Virus genome (UHGV): UHGV-0203597
Direction: 5' to 3' (one strand)
Length of the DNA stretch: 41,485 bases
Origin: a virus
Of the stretch, positions 1 to 41,485 are shown in pieces. Under the pieces are notes generated by a model, which was not told the DNA's origin, did no database searches, and was given only the letters and a program-made list of their open reading frames with translations. Position numbers and translations under genes: made by a program. Positions within the stretch are counted from its first letter, which is position 1, and each line of letters starts with the position of its first letter.

Positions 1-36
1 GTGGATTGGTGCTGTTTTTCCATGATAGGGGTAATT

Positions 37-417
37 ATGAGAAAAGTATTTTTGATTTTTGGATTTATGCTTCTCGTTGGATGCCAGTCAGCTGCACAGT
101 TTGAAAGAAATATGCTTACGTGGCGCGGGCAGAGTATAGACGCAATGGTTCAGCAGTGGGGGTATCCTCAGGGAGAGCTTACATCTCCAGATGGAAACAG
201 AGTGTATGTTTACTCAAGCTCTGGTAGTTATAACGTACCACAAACCACAACGTATAATACTACGTCTAATCTAATTGGTAATACTATATATTCAAACACA
301 TACGCAACAACTGATGGCGGTTATACACTCCATTTCAGTTGCTCTGTTTACGTTGAGTTTGGTGCTGATAAGATTATTAAAAATGTTACATGGCGCGGTA
401 ATAATTGCGTTGCGTGA
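37..417 (+). CDS. Putative lipoprotein (moron; candidate superinfection-exclusion or lysogenic-conversion protein)
   Basis: ATG at 37 with AGGGG 6 nt upstream; signal peptide MRKVFLIFGFMLLVGC with lipobox LVGC; Ser/Thr/Tyr/Asn-rich mature part; AT-rich; no TTACC-N5-GGTAA site upstream; followed by hairpin terminator. Confidence 0.6.
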   Translation: MRKVFLIFGFMLLVGCQSAAQFERNMLTWRGQSIDAMVQQWGYPQGELTSPDGNRVYVYSSSGSYNVPQTTTYNTTSNLIGNTIYSNTYATTDGGYTLHFSCSVYVEFGADKIIKNVTWRGNNCVA

Positions 418-425
418 CATGTCAC
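414..425. repeat. 12-bp perfect palindrome GTGACATGTCAC, copy 1 of 3
   Basis: Overlaps the TGA stop of the lipoprotein gene; identical 12-mer at 22054-22065 and 24541-24552. Confidence 0.5.
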
Positions 426-426
426 A

Positions 427-450
427 GGCCGCTTTCGCGGCCTTGTTTTT
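427..450. terminator. Rho-independent terminator hairpin GGCCGC-TTTC-GCGGCC plus T-tract
   Basis: Perfect 6-bp GC stem, 4-nt loop, then TTGTTTTT on + strand; lies between convergent genes; same 18-mer repeated at 3783-3800. Confidence 0.6.
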
Positions 451-610
451 AACGAATGCCACCGCCACCCGGGCGGGAATCCGCAGAACGCCCACCGCAG
501 CGGGAGCCGTCAGCGGCAGTATCGCTGTCGTGCTGACAACGACCGGCAAAGGCCTGAGTTGAAGCTACCAGAGACAACAAAACGAACAGTGCAGCAAATG
601 CTTTTTTCAT
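449..610 (-). CDS. Small secreted peptide (53 aa, SPase I-type signal, two Cys in mature part)
   Basis: ATG at 610; MKKAFAALFVLLSLVASTQAFA then GRCQHDSDTAADGSRCGG...; last gene of the minus-strand operon after the YafO-like gene; weak RBS. Confidence 0.35.
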   Translation of the reverse strand: MKKAFAALFVLLSLVASTQAFAGRCQHDSDTAADGSRCGGRSADSRPGGGGIR

Positions 611-691: not shown

Positions 692-1204
692 CTATGCAGG
701 CTTTTTGGATTTGTACGAATAATCCCACGGATAAACATTTCTACTAAGTGGAGCTGTATTCGTTCGTTCATGAAATAATTTTGTGAAATTCAATACGGAA
801 TCCATCCAAACTTTTGCGTTAGCTTTGGTGTGTGCGGGCGGGTCCCAATAAGCTAGTAAGGCTGCATCTCTTATTTCATTGACTGCATATATGAGATATG
901 CGTTACTGGTTGGTTTTGGCCTGTAATTTCCTTGTTCATCAATCAATCCATATGACCACTCATCCCAACACTGTTCAGTACATGAGTATGAATATGATGC
1001 ATATTCACCAATATTGACATGAACCTTTCTGAGATGGAAGCCTAATACTTCGTCTGGTCTTTCAAAAAGAGTATCTTTTCCCAGATCAGGATGATGACCA
1101 TGACGCCAGTGTTGTTTAAAAGCATCTTTTAGCGAAATCAGAAAGTCATCAGTTTTAAACTCACCAGTAGGTATAACCTTCCCGCTATACTCACTCAAAA
1201 ACAT
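692..1204 (-). CDS. YafO-family toxin-like protein (paralog 1)
   Basis: 170 aa; motifs HWRHGHHPDLGKDTLF, RKVHVNIG, YLIY, AALLAYWDPPAH recalled as matching E. coli YafO (RDGxLPDxFGRD, VAHIHL, LVYC, AWLLIAILKPEPH); 14-nt overlap with upstream gene. Confidence 0.5.
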   Translation of the reverse strand: MFLSEYSGKVIPTGEFKTDDFLISLKDAFKQHWRHGHHPDLGKDTLFERPDEVLGFHLRKVHVNIGEYASYSYSCTEQCWDEWSYGLIDEQGNYRPKPTSNAYLIYAVNEIRDAALLAYWDPPAHTKANAKVWMDSVLNFTKLFHERTNTAPLSRNVYPWDYSYKSKKPA

Positions 1205-1517
1205 CGAATTCCTCTTCCTTCATATGCGTTTCTAATGAGTTAAGCTGGCGGAAAGATATCTCTTTTGATTCTGCAGATGAGAGCTTTTTTATCCGCTTTA
1301 TATTCTTTGTGATAGGAATAGACATTGTATGCACATCAGCGGATGCTCTTGGCTTTGTGCTGATAAAAATATGGCGCAATGCCGCATTTTCACTATTGAA
1401 CGAGCCAATAGCTGATTTACGTGCTACAACCTTACCAGTAAAAATACGACTCTTGCTACGCTTTGCATGAGTTCCGCTTCTTACCGGACCTCTCATCACG
1501 AATCCAAGTTTTGTCAT
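1191..1517 (-). CDS. Small basic protein, putative cognate partner/antitoxin of YafO-like paralog 1 (no family recognised)
   Basis: 108 aa, Lys/Arg-rich with acidic C-terminus EEEFDVFE; GGAGA RBS; overlaps toxin-like gene. Confidence 0.4.
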   Translation of the reverse strand: MTKLGFVMRGPVRSGTHAKRSKSRIFTGKVVARKSAIGSFNSENAALRHIFISTKPRASADVHTMSIPITKNIKRIKKLSSAESKEISFRQLNSLETHMKEEEFDVFE

Positions 1518-2745: not shown

Positions 2746-2757
2746 TTGGGGGTGCCC

Positions 2758-3285
2758 ATGAACACGAAGAGAGTTACAGCGATGAGGCATAGACGCTTTG
2801 CCTTGAAAAGGCCTGAAAAAGAAAAAGAGCAAGAGATGGTGATTGAAGCAGCCGCTTATGCTGCAGCTATGGCAACTGCTGATGCGATTAGAAATTATGA
2901 AGAAGAGGATAATAAAAATTCCTATCGCATTTACTTATATGAGAGCCGTCACAGTGTTACAGACCATGAAGCATGCCTAAAAAAACAAGGGGAAGTATTC
3001 CACTGCAACCTTGCTGAGTACATTAGGAATGAAATGGAAAGGAATTTGGCTTTATCTCATTTTGGATACAAGAGTCAGGAAAGTGGTTTCGCTGGCTTTA
3101 AGGATAAAATTAACGAAAGGTGGCAACGTTTATACAAGCCACTTCAAGTTGATGAGAAAACTCATCAACTTGTTATGCATGAGGTCCCAAAGATGTCCGT
3201 AGAGAAATCCCATGCAATCTCGCGCAGGATGTTTGCACGCACTGCTGAAGACATGGCTCAGGAGCTCTACGACGATGCCGAATAA
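2758..3285 (+). CDS. Hypothetical charged helical protein, putative partner of YafO-like paralog 2
   Basis: 176 aa from ATG 2758 (alternative 2746); acidic C-terminus ELYDDAE; stop overlaps start of downstream toxin-like gene; unrelated to the 108-aa partner. Confidence 0.4.
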   Translation: MNTKRVTAMRHRRFALKRPEKEKEQEMVIEAAAYAAAMATADAIRNYEEEDNKNSYRIYLYESRHSVTDHEACLKKQGEVFHCNLAEYIRNEMERNLALSHFGYKSQESGFAGFKDKINERWQRLYKPLQVDEKTHQLVMHEVPKMSVEKSHAISRRMFARTAEDMAQELYDDAE

Positions 3286-3781
3286 ATTCCAGGGGTTGGT
3301 TCACCCTGGAATTTTTGGGAAGGACCCTGAGCTAATACCTATCAAAAACGCGTTCATAGATCACTGGCGCTACGGTCATCATAAGGATTTCGGAAAGGAC
3401 ACTCTGTTTCGAGATCCACCGAAAGAGATGCTGGAATATCACATACGCCACGTTCACTTAAACATCGGAAACTATACTGACAAGTTTGGTGAGAGCGGTA
3501 CGGAACAATGCTGGAAAAACTGGGCGTCTGGGAAGAAAGACAAGACCACTAACAAGCATAAAAAGATCCCAACCAGTGACGTGTATGTGATTTATCTGGT
3601 CACATCTGAACGCCATGCCTTCCTTCTGGATTATTGGGATGAACCAGCGCATAAGACAGTAGAAATTGACGAGCAGAAGCAAAAATTAGTTGTCGAGTGT
3701 GACAGAATTTTGCGGCTGAAAAAGTTAGAATCCATGCCGCGCGATGCAAGTTTGTGGGACCCAGAATTTTACGACTGTTAA
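3275..3781 (+). CDS. YafO-family toxin-like protein (paralog 2)
   Basis: 168 aa from MPNKF; motifs HWRYGHHKDFGKDTLF, RHVHLNIG, YVIY, AFLLDYWDEPAH align with paralog 1. Confidence 0.5.
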   Translation: MPNKFQGLVHPGIFGKDPELIPIKNAFIDHWRYGHHKDFGKDTLFRDPPKEMLEYHIRHVHLNIGNYTDKFGESGTEQCWKNWASGKKDKTTNKHKKIPTSDVYVIYLVTSERHAFLLDYWDEPAHKTVEIDEQKQKLVVECDRILRLKKLESMPRDASLWDPEFYDC

Positions 3782-4257: not shown

Positions 4258-6909
4258 ATGACGGTCTCAACCGAAGTTGACCACAACGAATACACCGGTA
4301 ACGGAGCTACGACATCATTTCCGTATACCTTCCGTATTTTCAAAAAATCCGACCTGGTTGTTCAGGTGTCTGACCTGAACGGGAACGTAACAGAATTGGT
4401 TCTGGATACTGACTACACAGTAACCAATGCTGGAGGATATAATGGCGGTAATGTAATTCTGTCGAAGGCGTTGGCTAACGGTTATCATATTTCTATATCA
4501 CGAGAGCTCCCGGTTACGCAGGATACTGATTTGCGTAATCAGGGTAAGTTCTTCGCTGAGGTACATGAAGACGCGTTCGATAAACTGACAATGCTTATTC
4601 AAAAGTGTTTTTCATGGATGAGGTTAGCACTTATAAAACCAAGCATTCTGGCTAACTATTATGATGCAAAAAATAATAAGATATCAAATCTAGCAAATGC
4701 CACTGACAGAAACGATGCTGTCAATAAAGGTTATGTTGATGATCTTTTTACTGGAGGTGTAACGCCTACACCTAACAGCGCTAAAAACGATATTTTTACA
4801 AATCACCAAAGAAAGATTGTAGCTACGATGCCGCTTCTTTTTCCTGAATATGATGCGATTATGGCTGCTAACCCGTCAGCAACTTATATGTATCCTCAAG
4901 GATTCTGCGTTAGCGAAGATTTGATATACATCACTTATCCATTTGAGCCTAAACAGACGAATAATGTCGTCGCAGTATTTAACATATCTGGTATTTATCA
5001 AGGTTATTTCTATGTTCAGGCTGGCGGCCCAGGCTTCGCTGCTGAAGGAATCGTGGTTACGTCAGACTATGGCCCCAAAAAAATGTTTGTTGGTCACACA
5101 AACGGAATACTGCGTGAATTTAATATGGAGGGGGCATTATACGGAAGCAATCTGCCTCTTGTACAAAACCATGATGTTGGATTATTCAACCAGTTCAGCT
5201 ACAGAAGAGGTATATGGCTCGTTGAGCAGAATGCGCCAGAAGTAGGACAGAAAATCACAAGAACTGTACTTGCAGTGTTCGACAGTGGTTTCAATCGCCT
5301 GTCAACTATAACGCTGCCGTTACATGATGTTGGGTATGTAACTAAAAGCACCTCACCTTATGCGCCTTATTTCAACAAGCGTCAGGGTATTGCGGTAGGT
5401 GATAACTACTTTGTCTGCGGCTATGGCGGCTTCATAGCTGATGGGGCAGGAAGCGCAGGATATAACGAATATCAGGGCAGCAAAGTTTTTAACCCTGACG
5501 GTACAAAGCGAACTGAATCAATGCTTCATCCTCAGGCCATGATGGATTTAATGAAAGCCGCAGGATTGAACGTCACTCGCATAGAAAATGAAGGCGTTTG
5601 TGTTTCTCAGGATGGAAAATCCATTTATTCACTTTACATTCATCAGGAAAGAACTGGCTCTGAACCTTACAATTCAGGTTTGGTTATTTTCGAAGATTTC
5701 TCCACTGATAAAGATGCTATCGATTTTACACCTGCATCCAGGCTTTACCGCGGATTTGATATCGATCACGCGAGCATTGGGGTATATCCCCGTAGTGCGA
5801 AGGGGATTGTTAACCCTGTAGATGGTACGTTGTTCACTAACATGACTGAAATTCTTCGCTATATGCAGGAGATGAGTCAGAAGGCATTTAATTTTTACAC
5901 AGGGACTGTCAGCATTGCTGATATATCTGGCGTGGCAATCCCTTCCAGCACATATGTTGAAATACTGAATGCGAATAATCAGACTTTTATAGTCAACTAT
6001 TATTCATCTGATAGTGGCATTAGTTATTTGGTTGCAACTAATCCTTCTGGTGACTTTGTATTTGTGCGCCAGCGACCGGCACAGTGGGCATCTAACTTAA
6101 CCATTCAGCAAAACGCAGATCCTGATACAAACCAATTAAACCGCATCACTGCATCATCATATGCCGGTGCAACTACAAACTCTCAGAAAATATTGGTCCT
6201 TGACCAGCAGGCTACAGCTAGCGCAAATAGCTTGGTATTGGGCGGTAGTTCTTCTGTGTTTAGGTCTGCCACCACGGTGGATATTGCATGCAACAGCGAC
6301 CCGACAGCATTGGGAGGAACCATACGCTGGCGGTTTTATGATACAGGTCTTCGCCCGTTTGCTGACAATACCTATAATTTTGGTCAGGCATCGTTTCGTA
6401 TTAAAGACGCCTACTTTGCAAATGCCCCAACCGTTTCATCAGATGCCACGCTGAAAACCAATCCCGAGGCAATATCAGATTTAAGTGAAATGCTTTCTTC
6501 TGATAGAGACAGCATTCTTGATGCCTGGGGCGATATTTCTGTTGTGGCGTATCGATGGCTCGACGCTATATCCATGAAGGGCGATGGTGCCAGATGGCAT
6601 TTTGGCGTCATGGCTCAGCAGGTAAGGGATGTATTCTTGGCGCACGGAATTGATGGAACCAGATTTGGCCTTCTTTGCTATGACGAGTGGGATGATATTT
6701 TTGAGCCGGTAATCGCGACTAAAGAGATTACCGATACGTCTGGTGAGTTGGTCACCGTCGAATATGACACCGGAGAACAGAGGCTGGTTAAAAAAGCGGG
6801 TAGTTCATGGGGTATACGGCCTGACCAGTGCGCTTGGCTTGAGGCTGCATATCAGCGCCGTCGATGCGATCGTATTGAAGAGCGACTCGAACTATTGGAA
6901 TCAAAATAA
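4258..6909 (+). CDS. Tailspike / tail fibre with T7 gp17-like N-terminal domain and C-terminal S74 intramolecular chaperone
   Basis: 883 aa; N-terminus resembles T7-type fibre anchor; C-terminus has RWHFGVMAQQV and GLLCYDEWDD recalled as S74 auto-processing chaperone motifs; central domain unassigned. Confidence 0.8.
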   Translation: MTVSTEVDHNEYTGNGATTSFPYTFRIFKKSDLVVQVSDLNGNVTELVLDTDYTVTNAGGYNGGNVILSKALANGYHISISRELPVTQDTDLRNQGKFFAEVHEDAFDKLTMLIQKCFSWMRLALIKPSILANYYDAKNNKISNLANATDRNDAVNKGYVDDLFTGGVTPTPNSAKNDIFTNHQRKIVATMPLLFPEYDAIMAANPSATYMYPQGFCVSEDLIYITYPFEPKQTNNVVAVFNISGIYQGYFYVQAGGPGFAAEGIVVTSDYGPKKMFVGHTNGILREFNMEGALYGSNLPLVQNHDVGLFNQFSYRRGIWLVEQNAPEVGQKITRTVLAVFDSGFNRLSTITLPLHDVGYVTKSTSPYAPYFNKRQGIAVGDNYFVCGYGGFIADGAGSAGYNEYQGSKVFNPDGTKRTESMLHPQAMMDLMKAAGLNVTRIENEGVCVSQDGKSIYSLYIHQERTGSEPYNSGLVIFEDFSTDKDAIDFTPASRLYRGFDIDHASIGVYPRSAKGIVNPVDGTLFTNMTEILRYMQEMSQKAFNFYTGTVSIADISGVAIPSSTYVEILNANNQTFIVNYYSSDSGISYLVATNPSGDFVFVRQRPAQWASNLTIQQNADPDTNQLNRITASSYAGATTNSQKILVLDQQATASANSLVLGGSSSVFRSATTVDIACNSDPTALGGTIRWRFYDTGLRPFADNTYNFGQASFRIKDAYFANAPTVSSDATLKTNPEAISDLSEMLSSDRDSILDAWGDISVVAYRWLDAISMKGDGARWHFGVMAQQVRDVFLAHGIDGTRFGLLCYDEWDDIFEPVIATKEITDTSGELVTVEYDTGEQRLVKKAGSSWGIRPDQCAWLEAAYQRRRCDRIEERLELLESK

Positions 6910-7706: not shown

Positions 7707-8325
7707 ACAATTCCAGCGAGCTGCTGGTATTAGCGAGGCTCTGGCCGCACGCTGGTTCTCGCATATAACTTCTGCGATGAAAGAGTTTGGTATCAGAAAA
7801 CCCGAAGATCAGGCAATGTTTATTGCTCAGGTCGGGCATGAGTCTGGTGGCTTCACCAGGTTGCAGGAGAATTTCAATTACAGCGTCACCGGACTGGCTA
7901 ACTTCGTTCGTGCCGGTCGTCTTACTCAGGGACAGGCTAACGCATTGGGTCGTCGTGCAGGCGAGCCACCATTGCCACCTGAGCGCCAGCGTGCGATTGC
8001 CAATCTGGTGTACAGCAAACGCATGGGGAACAATGCCTCTGGTGATGGCTGGAATTACCGTGGCCGCGGACTTATCCAGATTACCGGTTTGAATAACTAT
8101 CGTGATTGCGGAAACGGCCTGAAAGTGGACCTGCTGGAGAATCCTGAACTGTTGGCGCAGGACGAATACGCGGCTCGTAGCGCGGCGTGGTTCTTCTCCA
8201 GCAAAGGTTGCATGAAGTATACCGGCGATATTGCACGTGTAACTCTGATTATCAATGGTGGCAGGAATGGCATCGACGACCGGCGCGTGCGGTACATCAC
8301 TGCCAGTAAGGTGCTGGCGGTATGA
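7696..8325 (+). CDS. Endolysin, glycoside hydrolase family 19 (chitinase-like) type
   Basis: 210 aa from MEIKQ; motifs [12 protein letters not shown] and [12 protein letters not shown]; no N-terminal SAR segment. Confidence 0.8.
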
Positions 8326-8819
8326 TCTGGGCATTCGCAAAAGCATACCGGAAACAGTTGGTTGTCATGGCGATGCTTGCTGTTCTGGTCATATCAGGAG
8401 TTGTTGCCTGGAATGTGCATGGCAGCCGCCAGTACGATGCCGGGTATGCTCAGGCGAAGGAAGATCAGAAACAGGCTGATGATAAGTTAAGGTCACAGCG
8501 TGAGCAGGAGAAAACACAAATTGAACGTGAAGCACAATCCCGTATCGATGCGGCGCGTGCTGATGCTGAGTATGCTAATTCCGCTGCTGACAGCATGCGC
8601 GCCGAGCTTGACAAAACCAGGCGGCTCGCCGAACACTATACCGGATCTTTCCCCCCTGGCACGCCAGCCAGCAAGGTCATCGGTGTGCTCGCCGACATGC
8701 TTGAAGAAAGCAACCGAGTTTACAACGCAACAGCAGCTGAGGCTGAAAAGTATCGTATCGCAGGGGAATTCTGCGAGCAGCAATACGATTCACTGAAGAA
8801 GCAAAAATCGTGGCACTGA
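8322..8819 (+). CDS. Rz-like inner-membrane spanin
   Basis: 165 aa; N-terminal TM, coiled-coil-like periplasmic part; follows endolysin with ATGA overlap. Confidence 0.6.
8548..8796 (+). CDS. Rz1-like outer-membrane lipoprotein spanin embedded in +1 frame of Rz
   Basis: [17 protein letters not shown] with lipobox LTAC; Pro-rich mature part; entirely inside the Rz gene. Confidence 0.45.
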   Translation: MRRVLMLSMLIPLLTACAPSLTKPGGSPNTIPDLSPLARQPARSSVCSPTCLKKATEFTTQQQLRLKSIVSQGNSASSNTIH

Positions 8820-33494: not shown

Positions 33495-33958
33495 TGATCG
33501 ATGTTCAAATTATTCCCGCAACCGAAGAGCATCTTCAGATGATTTTGCCGGATGTTCGTCAGGCTGATATTGACGAACTGTATGCGGTATCACTGATGAC
33601 TACCGAAGATGCGCTGCGTGTTGGTCTGCGTACTGCGACTATGGCCTGGTCAGGATTTGCGAACGGAGAACTGGTAACCATGTTTGGCGTATCTCCGGCG
33701 TCAATGATCGGTGGCAATGGTACGCCATGGCTGGTAGGAACCAGCCGTATTGAAAAATATCAGAAGACATTTCTTCGCCACTGCCGCCCTGTATTGCAGC
33801 AGATGCTGGCAGTTTATCCGCGTCTGGAAAACTACGTCGACGAGCGAAACCATGTTGCCAAAGCATGGCTCCACTGGCTTGGATTCAGGCTTGAAGAAGC
33901 CGCGCCTTATGGTGCTCTTGGTCTTAATTTCCACAGATTTCACATGGAGAGAAAATAA
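33494..33958 (+). CDS. Internal virion protein (T7 gp13 position)
   Basis: 154 aa; TGATG coupling. Confidence 0.4.
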   Translation: MIDVQIIPATEEHLQMILPDVRQADIDELYAVSLMTTEDALRVGLRTATMAWSGFANGELVTMFGVSPASMIGGNGTPWLVGTSRIEKYQKTFLRHCRPVLQQMLAVYPRLENYVDERNHVAKAWLHWLGFRLEEAAPYGALGLNFHRFHMERK

Positions 33959-34497
33959 TGTGTAACCCAGCCATCGCTTTGGTTGCCGTCACAGTGGCAT
34001 CCACAGCCGCGTCAATGTACAGCCAGAGCAAGCAGGCAAAATACCAGTCAGCCATAGCTGATCGGAATGCTGAAATTGCTGAAGCTCAGGCACAGGATTC
34101 AATCAATCGTGGGAATATTGAAGCGGATCAGCGTCGTCGTGAAATGCGTCAACGCTCAGGCACTGCGGCGGCCACTATGGGGGCTACCGGTGCGGAATTA
34201 AGTAGCGGAACAGCTCTTGACGTTTTTGCGGATAATGCTCAGTTCGGCGCTCTTGATGCGTTAACGACAGTGAATAATGCTCAGCGTGAGGCATATGGGT
34301 ATCAGGTTCAGGGAATGAATGCTCAGGCACAGGGGGCTGCTGCTCAGTCGGCTGCTAAATCATCGATGACCAGCACTTTGTTAACAGCACCACTAAAAGC
34401 ATACGGTGCATACCAGATGGGCGGAGGAACGTGGAGCCCATTCTCTCAGAAGGCTGCGCCGATTTCTGCTGCTGTTGGCACTCCAACCGGTCGATAA
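33958..34497 (+). CDS. Internal virion / ejection protein (T7 gp14 position)
   Basis: 179 aa; N-terminal hydrophobic segment, Ala/Gln-rich. Confidence 0.45.
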   Translation: MCNPAIALVAVTVASTAASMYSQSKQAKYQSAIADRNAEIAEAQAQDSINRGNIEADQRRREMRQRSGTAAATMGATGAELSSGTALDVFADNAQFGALDALTTVNNAQREAYGYQVQGMNAQAQGAAAQSAAKSSMTSTLLTAPLKAYGAYQMGGGTWSPFSQKAAPISAAVGTPTGR

Positions 34498-38827: not shown

Positions 38828-41302
38828 ATGAGACAGGAATGTATACAAGCGGTCCAGCAGGCGGCGCAGCGCACGTTAACGGCGCGAGAAATACAGAACA
38901 TTGAAGACCGCATTTATCGAAATATGCGCTCCATTGCTCGTGATGACCCGATGTCGTGGAGACAACTTTCCGAATCAGAGCGGCTATATCGTGCAGCACA
39001 ATTGGCATCTGAAGAATTACAGCGAGAAGCGGCATTAAAGAAACGTCGTGTGGCCCTCACTATAGCCGCACGTCAGAGATTGGATAAATTTATCAATAGC
39101 TATCAAGGGGCTGATGGGAAACTTGGCGCTCTTAACCGTACTATTGCTTTTAATGCAGACGGTAAATCGAATTTCCTCTCTGTTGAGTCCAGAACAAAAG
39201 CCACTCGTGATTATGCATTGAGTCAATTGCAAGAGGCATTTGAAGCAGTTGATCCTCGCTTTTTTGGCCTGTTTGAAGATGAAGCTGGCGTGCGTGACCT
39301 GGTATATGAAATGCGAGGGCAAAATACTGGCAATGCTAAAGCAAGAAAAGGTGCTAAGGCGTGGAGAGAAGTTACAGAGCTGCTGCGCCGCCGGTTTAAT
39401 GATGCTGGTGGGGACATTGGCTATCTCGAAAACTGGGGGATCCCTCAACATCATTCTATGGAAAAGGTTGGGGCGGTATCAAAGGATAAGTGGGTTGGCG
39501 ATGTTATAGGTAAGCTGGATCGCAAATATTATACCCGAGCCGATGGACAACTGATGAACGATGCCGAGTTGTCTGCATTTCTTGGAGAGGCTTATAACAC
39601 GATAGCTACTGGTGGGCTGAATAAGCTTACTGATACCGGAATGCGAATTTCCGGCGCACGTGCTAACCGTGGTAATGCATCACGACAGATACATTTCAAA
39701 AATGCAGATTCCTATCTCCAATATCAACAACTTTATGGTGATCGCTCTCTATGGGAAATCATGGTCGGTCACCTGGAAGGTATCAGTAAAGATATTGCTC
39801 TGGTGGAAACATATGGTCCAAACCCCGATCATGTTTTCCGCTCCCTTCTTGATCAGGTTAAGGCAGAAACGGCAACAGCTAACCCTAGTAAAACCGGTAA
39901 AGTCGAGCGGCTGGCGAACAACACAGAGAATCTGTACAACTTTATTTCCGGAAAGACACAGCCTGTAGCGAATCCGCACATCGCGCGATGGTCTGACAAT
40001 ATCCGCAACTGGCTGGTTGCCAGCAGACTCGGATCCGCGTTGCTGTCATCGTTCTCTGATCTTGGAACCATGTATCTGTCTGCGAAGGTTACCAACCTTC
40101 CAATGAACCAGTTATTCCGCAACCAGCTTGAAGCTATGGACCCAACGAACCGTACAGAACTTGCGCGGGCGCGCCGCGCTGGTCTGGCGATGGAATCTCT
40201 ACTTGGCAGCGTTAACCGCTGGGCGATGGATAATATGGGGCCGTCAGTGTCTCGTTGGGCGGCAACGGCGGTAATGCGTGCCAGTGGGCTTACAGCATGG
40301 TCAGATGCGCACAAGCGCGCCTATGGCGTAACCATGATGGGAAGCCTGGGAGAAGTAGTGTCACGGACACCAGACCTTCGTAGCCTCGATGACTCTGATT
40401 TTCGTATCCTGAAAAGCAAAGGGATTACTGACACAGACTGGAGCGTATGGAAGCTGGCGCAACAGGAGGACTGGGGGAACGGTAATAATACGATGCTGAC
40501 ACCGGAAAGCATTATGCGTATCCCTGATTCAGCAGTTAAACATCTTGGTGAGCCTGAACGCGTGAAATTTGAGGCAATGCGTAAACTGCTCGGTGCCGTA
40601 ACTGAAGAAGTTGATATGGCTGTTATTACACCGGGAGCACGTGAGCAACTGATAACCGGTTCTGGTATTCAGCGTGGAACATGGAAAGGTGAATTAACGA
40701 GAAGTGTTTTCCTGTTTAAATCGTTCCCTATCTCGGTGGTTATGCGTCACTGGCATAGAGCTATGGGGATGTCGTCTGCTGGTGGGCGTGCGGCATATAT
40801 AGCAACGTTTTTAGCAAGCACAACCATGCTTGGTGCTCTTTCCATGCAGATTACTGATCTTATTAATGGGAGAAATCCAAAGGAAATGACCGGTGACCAC
40901 ATGGTTAAATTCTGGATAAATGCATTTTTAAAAGGTGGTGGGGCAGGGTTGTACGGTGATTTTCTCTTCTCTGACCACACTAGGTACGGGAGCGGCGCGC
41001 TGGCGTCGATGCTTGGCCCGGTAGCTGGTCTGGTTGATGACGTAGTGAAGATAGCTCAGGGCATACCTCTAAATGCTGTGGAAGGGAAGAATGAGCAGAC
41101 TGGTGGTGATCTGGTCAAGCTGGGGAAAGGTCTGATGCCAGGTGCGAATCTCTGGTACTTGAAGGCGGCTCTCGATCACATGATCTTTAACCAGATGCAG
41201 GAGTATTTTTCACCAGGCTATTTGCGTAAAATGGAGCAACGTTCGAAGAAAGAGTTTAACCAGACATACTGGTGGCGACCACAGGATGTCACTCCGCAAT
41301 AA
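38828..41302 (+). CDS. Internal virion / ejection protein (T7 gp16 position, part 2)
   Basis: 824 aa; GAGAGG RBS; last large structural gene before the accessory island. Confidence 0.45.
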   Translation: MRQECIQAVQQAAQRTLTAREIQNIEDRIYRNMRSIARDDPMSWRQLSESERLYRAAQLASEELQREAALKKRRVALTIAARQRLDKFINSYQGADGKLGALNRTIAFNADGKSNFLSVESRTKATRDYALSQLQEAFEAVDPRFFGLFEDEAGVRDLVYEMRGQNTGNAKARKGAKAWREVTELLRRRFNDAGGDIGYLENWGIPQHHSMEKVGAVSKDKWVGDVIGKLDRKYYTRADGQLMNDAELSAFLGEAYNTIATGGLNKLTDTGMRISGARANRGNASRQIHFKNADSYLQYQQLYGDRSLWEIMVGHLEGISKDIALVETYGPNPDHVFRSLLDQVKAETATANPSKTGKVERLANNTENLYNFISGKTQPVANPHIARWSDNIRNWLVASRLGSALLSSFSDLGTMYLSAKVTNLPMNQLFRNQLEAMDPTNRTELARARRAGLAMESLLGSVNRWAMDNMGPSVSRWAATAVMRASGLTAWSDAHKRAYGVTMMGSLGEVVSRTPDLRSLDDSDFRILKSKGITDTDWSVWKLAQQEDWGNGNNTMLTPESIMRIPDSAVKHLGEPERVKFEAMRKLLGAVTEEVDMAVITPGAREQLITGSGIQRGTWKGELTRSVFLFKSFPISVVMRHWHRAMGMSSAGGRAAYIATFLASTTMLGALSMQITDLINGRNPKEMTGDHMVKFWINAFLKGGGAGLYGDFLFSDHTRYGSGALASMLGPVAGLVDDVVKIAQGIPLNAVEGKNEQTGGDLVKLGKGLMPGANLWYLKAALDHMIFNQMQEYFSPGYLRKMEQRSKKEFNQTYWWRPQDVTPQ

Positions 41303-41312
41303 AAGGAGATAT

Positions 41313-41438
41313 GATGGTTCAAATAACTTTTATTGTACTAATATGTGCAGCGTTTTTATGCTATTCATACATTTTGATAAAAATGGGTTTCAATTGGAAT
41401 CTCTGTTGCGTGCAGCGGCATGGTTCGGCTTTGTAGTA
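41313..41438 (+). CDS. Small single-pass membrane protein (41 aa)
   Basis: AAGGAG RBS; MMVQITFIVLICAAFLCYSYILIK...; AT-rich; below ORF-track cut-off. Confidence 0.3.
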
Positions 41439-41485
41439 TTCGGAATTGTATTGTTCGGAAGAATAATAAAATAACTAGTTAATTT

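Follow-up and report, generated by a model that had tools for sequence, protein, structure and literature searches.

An optional lipoprotein gene behind the ejection-protein genes of epsilon15-type podophages, a candidate exclusion factor

The gene at positions 37 to 417 of the window (the whole 41,485-nt stretch of viral DNA analysed here, UHGV-0203597) encodes a protein whose reading as a Sec/Lgt/Lsp-type prolipoprotein is directly supported by its sequence features, and it lies as optional cargo in a slot of fixed position, between the last ejection-protein gene and the operon terminator, in epsilon15-type temperate podophages. To judge from 37 homologues with invariant residues common to all, the gene is real and under selection, and by its sequence characters the protein is an uncharacterised variant of a known theme, the accessory outer-membrane lipoproteins of phages. 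By analogy we tentatively read it as an outer-membrane-anchored periplasmic protein that may bind a conserved component of the host envelope and exclude further phage entry, a reading that we hold to be possible rather than probable. A search of the literature, including that on Uetakevirus accessory genes, returned no study of the lipoprotein, which was entered as hypothetical in the ZX5 paper.

The window represents the complete genome of a temperate podophage of the epsilon15/phiV10 type (genus Uetakevirus) in circularly permuted form. Over bases 1-549 it matches the end of Escherichia phage vB_EcoP_ZX5 at 100% identity, and E. coli chromosomes carry a prophage of the same arrangement, in which the window's own end precedes window position 1. 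Because of the permutation, the true upstream region of the gene consists of 41303..41485 joined to 1..36, and the first-pass annotation, made from the window as cut at that point, was limited to 36 nt upstream of the gene.

Table 1. Coordinates of the window features discussed in the text
Feature	Position	Strand	Description
Prolipoprotein CDS, 126 aa	37..417	+	ATG at 37, TGA at 415-417; PHROG 3716
Shine-Dalgarno-like AGGGG	27..31	+	5 nt before the ATG; read off the sequence
Lipoprotein signal peptide MRKVFLIFGFMLLVGC	37..84	+	Lipobox LVGC; codon of predicted lipidated Cys16 at 82-84; weak Pfam LPAM_1 match
Mature domain, aa 17-126 (110 aa)	85..414	+	Two helices and a long antiparallel beta-meander (predicted); C102 and C124 invariant
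10-bp palindrome TGACATGTCA	415..424	.	Overlaps the stop codon; contains the core CATGTCACA
Intrinsic terminator	426..450	+	Stem 426-443 with 7 pairs, 6 of them GC, loop TTTC; then TGTTTTT
Embedded o-spanin, classical, Pro-rich	8548..8796	+	Inside the DUF2514 i-spanin gene 8322..8819, frame +1
T7 gp14-like gene	33958..34497	+	First gene of the virion internal-protein block
824-aa internal virion/ejection protein gene	38828..41302	+	Last of the ejection block; defines the slot context
Spacer, left part	41303..41485	+	Part of the 219-nt, 34% GC spacer, which continues at 1-36; with the gene, an optional cassette
Small membrane-protein ORF	41312..41474	+	Strong AAGGAG site; 41 aa with one TM helix, to 41437

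The prolipoprotein and its predicted fold

Some NCBI records begin the gene at a GTG that coincides exactly with window position 1, giving a 138-aa version that we reject as a likely mis-annotation. The GTG is the less likely start because it has no Shine-Dalgarno sequence, because it would bury the n-region of the signal peptide, and because the starts of homologues fit the ATG at 37, which is preceded, as the first-pass annotation had said, by a ribosome-binding site of its own (Table 1). The 37 homologues, at 35-99% identity, come from Escherichia, Shigella, Salmonella, Klebsiella, Enterobacter, Citrobacter and Raoultella, and the residues invariant across them are C16, W29, G31, G42-Y43-P44, G53-N54, Y57, Y59, P68, G95, C102 and G121-N122-N123-C124. 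A PHROG scan returned only phrog_3716, annotated as of 'unknown function'; the match, at E 5e-64, joins residues 11-126 to the full profile (positions 1-116 of 116). The GC content of the gene is 40% and that of the spacer 34%, against 48.7% for the genome.

The signal peptide, MRKVFLIFGFMLLVGC, has a basic n-region (Arg2/Lys3), an uncharged hydrophobic core of 11 residues and an L-V-G-C lipobox, and so agrees with the rule that we used for lipoprotein membership, namely [LVI][ASTVI][GAS]C after a basic n-region and an uncharged hydrophobic core. All of 32 close homologues keep Cys16, as do more than 90% of 41 distant homologues. When the lipobox scan was applied strictly to all six frames of the whole window it returned only the 37..417 ORF (with two alternative starts), the embedded o-spanin and two further ORFs that are taken to be spurious; the lipobox signal peptide recognized in the first-pass annotation is thus borne out. 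The residue at position +2 after the lipidated cysteine is Gln. In E. coli a residue other than Asp at +2 directs Lol-dependent sorting to the outer membrane, and on this basis the mature protein is predicted to be anchored on the periplasmic side of the outer membrane, in its inner leaflet. The invariance of C102 and C124 points to a probable periplasmic disulfide between them, which would in turn place the domain in an oxidising, exported location.

The mature domain had also been described as rich in Ser, Thr, Asn and Tyr, and this description holds: the four residues make up 39% of it and 64% of residues 59-100, and the domain stands above every other window ORF that reaches 100 aa; ORFs this long average 20.5%, with an sd of 5.6 and a maximum of 35.6. 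A fold search, which the first-pass annotation had proposed as a check, gave a BamE/BLIP-like fold for the modelled protein. In the AlphaFold2 model, built from 32 sequences with a mean pLDDT of 85.9, helices at 19-27 and 34-41 are followed by a meander of long strands, and the fold resembles BamE, BLIP, OsmE and CAP_assoc_N as well as YfeY, DUF4309 YjgB, the N-domain of TpgA and BtiO. Foldseek against the PDB ranked BamE chains at the top with a probability of 0.99, but none at E <= 0.001, while a profile made from 41 diverse members matches the CAP_assoc_N-containing chain 4h0a at E 1.9e-5, and, apart from two phage SmpA/OmlA lipoproteins, a fold search of BFVD returned uncharacterised phage proteins only. 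For a model, the BamE/BLIP-like assignment is well supported. Specific to the lipoprotein family are two extra long strands rich in the same four residues (about aa 60-95) and the C-terminal GNNC disulfide motif. The arrangement of two helices and an antiparallel sheet is thus predicted to be common to the window protein and to BamE, OsmE, SmpA_OmlA and BLIP-like proteins; the window protein differs from BamE, OsmE and SmpA_OmlA in scoring below every Pfam and NCBIfam threshold and in being carried by phages in a fixed slot. A fold of this kind is a generic binding module, and it specifies no partner.

Scans of the query and 41 family members against Pfam, NCBIfam and PADLOC gave nothing above threshold. 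The SmpA_OmlA profile (PF04355) in particular matched neither the query, at E up to 1, nor any of the 41 members, and the PADLOC defence models gave no match at E up to 0.01. A phmmer match to the Methanosarcina S-layer protein 1l0q (E 5e-10) was rejected as homology because it adds up weak matches between seven propeller blades and one short motif (P.G..SPDG..VYV), none of them significant by itself. The family itself is large: among 1.84 billion representatives, a profile search returned 3,646 clusters at E <= 0.001, 1,053 of them at E <= 1e-10. Counted at 50% identity the family has some 3,600 clusters, and there is no Pfam or NCBIfam model for it. Outside the epsilon15-like phages some members lie in other prophages, beside a cytosine methylase and a PtuA/LmuB-like ATPase, and one is located in an island that also carries a bSEFIR/TIR protein, HEPN_AbiU2, integrases and transposases. 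Further members, in Pseudomonas and marine bacteria, are orphan genes of the chromosome that have no conserved neighbour and no phage or defence context. A copy at 61% identity in IMG/VR UViG 2744054990_000010 (L037 6001..6377) has no intact full-length ORF, 98 aa being open, and is possibly a pseudogene.

The cargo slot and its surroundings

In the window the ejection block lies 5′ of the lipoprotein gene on the same strand, in the order T7 gp14-like gene and then genes for proteins of 837, 600 and 824 aa. The lipoprotein gene keeps its position directly after this gp14-like/ejection block in phages of E. coli, Salmonella, Klebsiella and Raoultella and in metagenomic phages, down to about 30% identity. 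In E. coli the filling of the slot varies. The spacer and the lipoprotein gene are found in about 34 of the 315 E. coli genomes that carry the 3′ end of the 824-aa gene; in the other E. coli genomes similarity ends at or just after the stop codon of that gene and resumes at the terminator. The alternative cargo, which always consists of small membrane proteins, is a 46-aa protein with two TM helices in one E. coli prophage (L014) and a pair of membrane proteins of 57 and 98 aa in another (L015). Both the presence/absence pattern and the deviant base composition expected of a moron in the Hendrix/Juhala sense are found here. Since phages whose ejection proteins are 97-99% identical at the 3′ end occur without the lipoprotein gene, an obligatory structural or assembly role for its product is rejected. 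The strains in which the gene is found include clinical ExPEC and APEC.

On the left of the slot, the small membrane-protein ORF begins 10 nt beyond the end of the 824-aa gene; only in the +1 frame, to 41474, can a second TM helix, AAAWFGFVVFGIVLFGRIIK, be read. Apparently this ORF is a frameshifted two-TM protein; intact two-TM proteins of 46-57 aa stand at the equivalent place in L014 and L015, and the frameshifted form is kept at 99.7-100% identity in about 34 E. coli genomes. On the right, the sequence CATGTCACA directly before the terminator hairpin is the boundary of every cargo variant (L002, L005, L014 and L015, in E. coli, Klebsiella and Salmonella), which suggests that the junction is a conserved recombination boundary or a binding site. 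The 9-mer occurs three times in the window, where 0.5 occurrences would be expected. Burkholderia phage vB_E332 uses the same slot, and in it a homologue of 28% identity with the lipobox LIGC (L003 5950..6399) lies on the opposite strand, between the last ejection-protein gene and the tailspike gene and with a 4-nt overlap with the end of the former. Its annotated CDS (6121..6399) leaves out the signal peptide.

To the 3′ side of the lipoprotein gene, convergent genes on the minus strand encode a 53-aa secreted protein, a YafO-like toxin pair and a BRO/Ant protein, and beyond them come the tailspike gene and the lysis cassette. The cassette is complete, with two holins, a GH19 endolysin, a DUF2514 i-spanin and the embedded o-spanin, which is absent from the annotated features of the related-record stretches that were compared. 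The identity of 37..417 as an o-spanin (Rz1-like) is rejected because the genome has an o-spanin of its own, because the gene lies about 8 kb from it, and because its product has a folded 110-aa domain.

Two side observations concern the accessory region that separates the ejection genes from the tailspike. It may hold two toxin-antitoxin pairs, one on the minus strand (692..1517), in which a gene with a weak Pfam YafO match (692..1204) is preceded by an overlapping small gene (1191..1517), and one on the plus strand (2746..3781), in which a gene annotated in RefSeq as YafO family (3212..3781) is likewise preceded by an overlapping small gene (2746..3285). The 53-aa secreted protein, encoded at 449..610 on the minus strand and convergent with the lipoprotein gene, has a signal peptide, MKKAFAALFVLLSLVASTQAFA, and a Gly/Arg/Asp/Ser-rich tail with two Cys; it belongs to phrog_14503 ('membrane associated protein, moron'), and the stretch is found in about 535 E. 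coli records. It gives a sub-threshold match (E 0.073) to the HxsA3 His-Xaa-Ser repeat family, for which a link to a block of phage DNA entry has recently been reported (PMC13128918), and no maturase gene lies near it.

Transcription of the slot

The first-pass annotation had taken the gene to be expressed in the lysogen, and this is not supported. Across the joined ends of the window (41303..41485 plus 1..36) the best sigma-70-like sites match at 8-9 of 12 positions, no better than in shuffled sequence, and no terminator lies between the 824-aa gene and the lipoprotein gene. In most related prophages the distance from the preceding late gene to the lipoprotein gene is -4 to about +38 nt, a spacing that leaves no room for a promoter. 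In Salmonella it follows the 824-aa gene by 9 nt (the protein is found in about 930 blocks of the collection); in L009 the gap is 0 nt, and in L013 the lipoprotein gene overlaps the 824-aa gene by 4 nt (ATGA). A 4-nt overlap is also seen in Raoultella (L007 and L011), there with a small upstream membrane-protein gene, and gaps of 8-38 nt are seen in L033, L035, L040, L041 and L043. The lipoprotein gene is internal to the operon in L041 and L043 (30-39% identity), since a gene for a protein of 846-864 aa follows it there on the same strand. The exceptions to this spacing are Klebsiella phage ST11-OXA245phi3.2, with 145 nt, and the window, with 219 nt that are occupied by the small membrane-protein ORF. 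The simplest reading is late co-transcription with the ejection operon, the timing of expression being read from gene spacing in the relatives only. In Burkholderia phage vB_E332 the copy is antisense to the late operon and must therefore be transcribed independently.

The hairpin downstream of the gene, with an RNA fold of -21.5 kcal/mol (z = -2.8), is an intrinsic terminator, as had been claimed, but it is the late operon's and not the gene's own, because it is kept in phages that do not have the gene. A matching hairpin is annotated as a terminator in phiV10, and the sequence is conserved in phiV10, L014 and L015, all of which are without the lipoprotein gene; in other E. coli prophages it follows different cargo.

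Possible roles in the envelope

The first-pass annotation compared the protein with Cor and Llp, and the comparison stands as an analogy only. HK022 Cor and T5 Llp, taken from their annotated records, are both 77-aa precursors. With hhalign only residues 1-24 align with Cor, at a probability of 61%, and a profile comparison with Llp aligns only residues 1-19; in both cases this is the signal peptide, and membership in either family is rejected because the mature domains have no similarity. What the three do have in common is a lipobox, a pair of cysteines of which one is internal and one close to the C-terminus, and a gene placed beside adsorption or ejection genes. Llp (T5 and its BF23/H8 relatives), an outer-membrane lipoprotein that inactivates FhuA, is like the window protein a small phage lipoprotein in which an internal Cys is paired with one near the C-terminus, and its gene lies beside adsorption and entry genes and is expressed in lytic growth, as operon position suggests for the window gene. 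It differs in its mature length of about 60 aa, against 110 aa in the window protein with its BamE/BLIP-like fold, and in having a divergent promoter of its own. Cor (HK022, phi80 and N15), a prophage lipoprotein responsible for FhuA-dependent exclusion, resembles the window protein in being an annotated moron lipoprotein with a lipobox, two Cys and an accessory distribution, encoded downstream of tail genes; unlike the window gene, which appears coupled to late genes and for which no promoter was found, it is regarded as expressed from the prophage. The lambda morons Bor and Lom offer a further parallel as optional envelope genes of deviant base composition, inserted inside a late structural operon or at its end, although neither is homologous to the window protein and no independent promoter was found for the window gene.

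The reading that we tentatively favour would have the lipoprotein made mainly with the late virion and ejection proteins, as the placement of its gene suggests. On the periplasmic side of the outer membrane it would bind a conserved component of the host envelope, for which the binding of BamE to BamA/BamD, of TpgA to the AtaA barrel and of Llp to FhuA are precedents, and once bound it would block envelope opening or DNA delivery by further phages of this type. The events prevented would be DNA delivery into an already infected or lysogenic cell, or wasteful ejection into debris, so that a job like that of Llp and Cor would be done by an unrelated protein. Consistent with such a role are the lipoprotein features, the conservation of the family, the fixed slot, the optional nature of the cargo and its deviant GC, the analogous positions of cor and llp beside adsorption genes, and the presence of family members in accessory or defence-type neighbourhoods (bSEFIR/TIR, HEPN_AbiU2 and the PtuA/LmuB-like ATPase).

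The nature of the target may be approached from the identities of neighbouring genes. Over 11 loci the identity of the mature lipoprotein and that of the upstream ejection protein are correlated overall (Spearman 0.80), but two pairs depart strikingly from the trend. Between the window and the Klebsiella phage the mature lipoprotein is 84% identical and the ejection protein 31%, while between the window and Salmonella L005 the values are 69% and 92%. On these comparisons the lipoprotein is exchanged or conserved independently of the ejection proteins. The first pair favours a conserved host target over one specific to a phage protein, and recent horizontal transfer is an alternative explanation for it.

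Several points count against exclusion. The primary receptor of these phages is the O-antigen, which a lipoprotein facing the periplasm could not mask, so the exclusion reading would need a secondary protein receptor or entry factor, and we know of none for these phages. Absence from the PADLOC models, the want of Cor or Llp homology beyond the signal peptide and the generic fold weigh in the same direction. The many orphan chromosomal members, moreover, indicate that the ancestral function may be ordinary envelope physiology, and they lead to the rival that fares best, a lysogenic-conversion lipoprotein of the Bor or OsmE kind that would alter outer-membrane properties (stress, serum or detergent tolerance, or OMP assembly) for the benefit of the host and have no anti-phage role. 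BamE, OsmE and YfeY, whose fold is matched, are themselves host envelope lipoproteins; the family has very many members, which are often chromosomal and away from any phage context; and the gene is optional, differs in GC and occurs in clinical ExPEC/APEC strains, with a Burkholderia copy that must be transcribed independently of the late operon. The tight coupling to late genes and the failure to find a promoter in the enterobacterial phages are, however, unlike what is expected of a fitness gene expressed in the lysogen, the position beside the ejection/tailspike module is held across very divergent phages, and there is no Pfam match to Bor or SmpA_OmlA. We consider a purely host-directed role somewhat unlikely.

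The closeness of the fold to BLIP-like proteins and to the T6SS immunity protein BtiO also brings to mind an inhibitor or immunity protein of the periplasm that would neutralise a wall-degrading enzyme, whether of incoming ejection proteins, the endolysin or a competitor's effector, for which T4 Spackle is a precedent. The gene lies directly after the ejection proteins, and the corresponding block of the Burkholderia relative includes a protein with an annotated lytic transglycosylase domain, but no muralytic Pfam domain was detected in the three large ejection proteins of the window. A lipoprotein conserved at 84% where the adjacent ejection protein is at 31% argues against an inhibitor specific to a phage protein, and no conserved partner gene stands beside the chromosomal members, making this explanation quite improbable. 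Least probable, and indeed very improbable, is a late-acting accessory of egress that would modulate the outer membrane or the peptidoglycan as infection ends (timing of lysis, progeny release or prevention of re-adsorption to vesicles) instead of protecting the cell: its place as last or internal cistron of the late operon, at -4 to +38 nt in most lineages, and the small membrane proteins that replace it in the slot would suit such a role, but the lysis cassette elsewhere is already complete and near-identical relatives manage without the gene, which is thus not needed for the lytic cycle.

Returning to exclusion by an outer-membrane-anchored periplasmic binder, a more specific proposal is that the BamE-fold family members of epsilon15-type podophages shut the envelope gate used by the T7-gp14-like ejection machinery, by binding a conserved outer-membrane or periplasmic component, and so form a new class of exclusion lipoproteins unrelated to Cor and Llp. 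We regard it as unlikely on present evidence; if true, it could point to the secondary receptor or entry factor of O-antigen-specific podophages.

A consequence of the placement of this gene is that cargo in translational coupling with late genes should not be taken by default to be expressed in the lysogen. Should the protein be merely a generic envelope lipoprotein, the finding would be an ordinary one. If the exclusion role is true, it would be a third, structurally unrelated lipoprotein solution besides Cor and Llp, and whatever the lipoprotein binds would become a candidate entry factor, giving an experimental handle on how phages of the epsilon15/phiV10 type cross the envelope after binding the O-antigen. 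The size of the family, its fixed slot by the ejection machinery and the want of a curated model make the protein a reasonable candidate for experiment. Whatever the function, these results describe a lipoprotein family of thousands for which there is no curated model, and a single recombination slot, from the stop codon of the ejection-protein gene to the junction of CATGTCACA with the terminator, at which prophages of E. coli, Salmonella and Klebsiella swap small envelope proteins.
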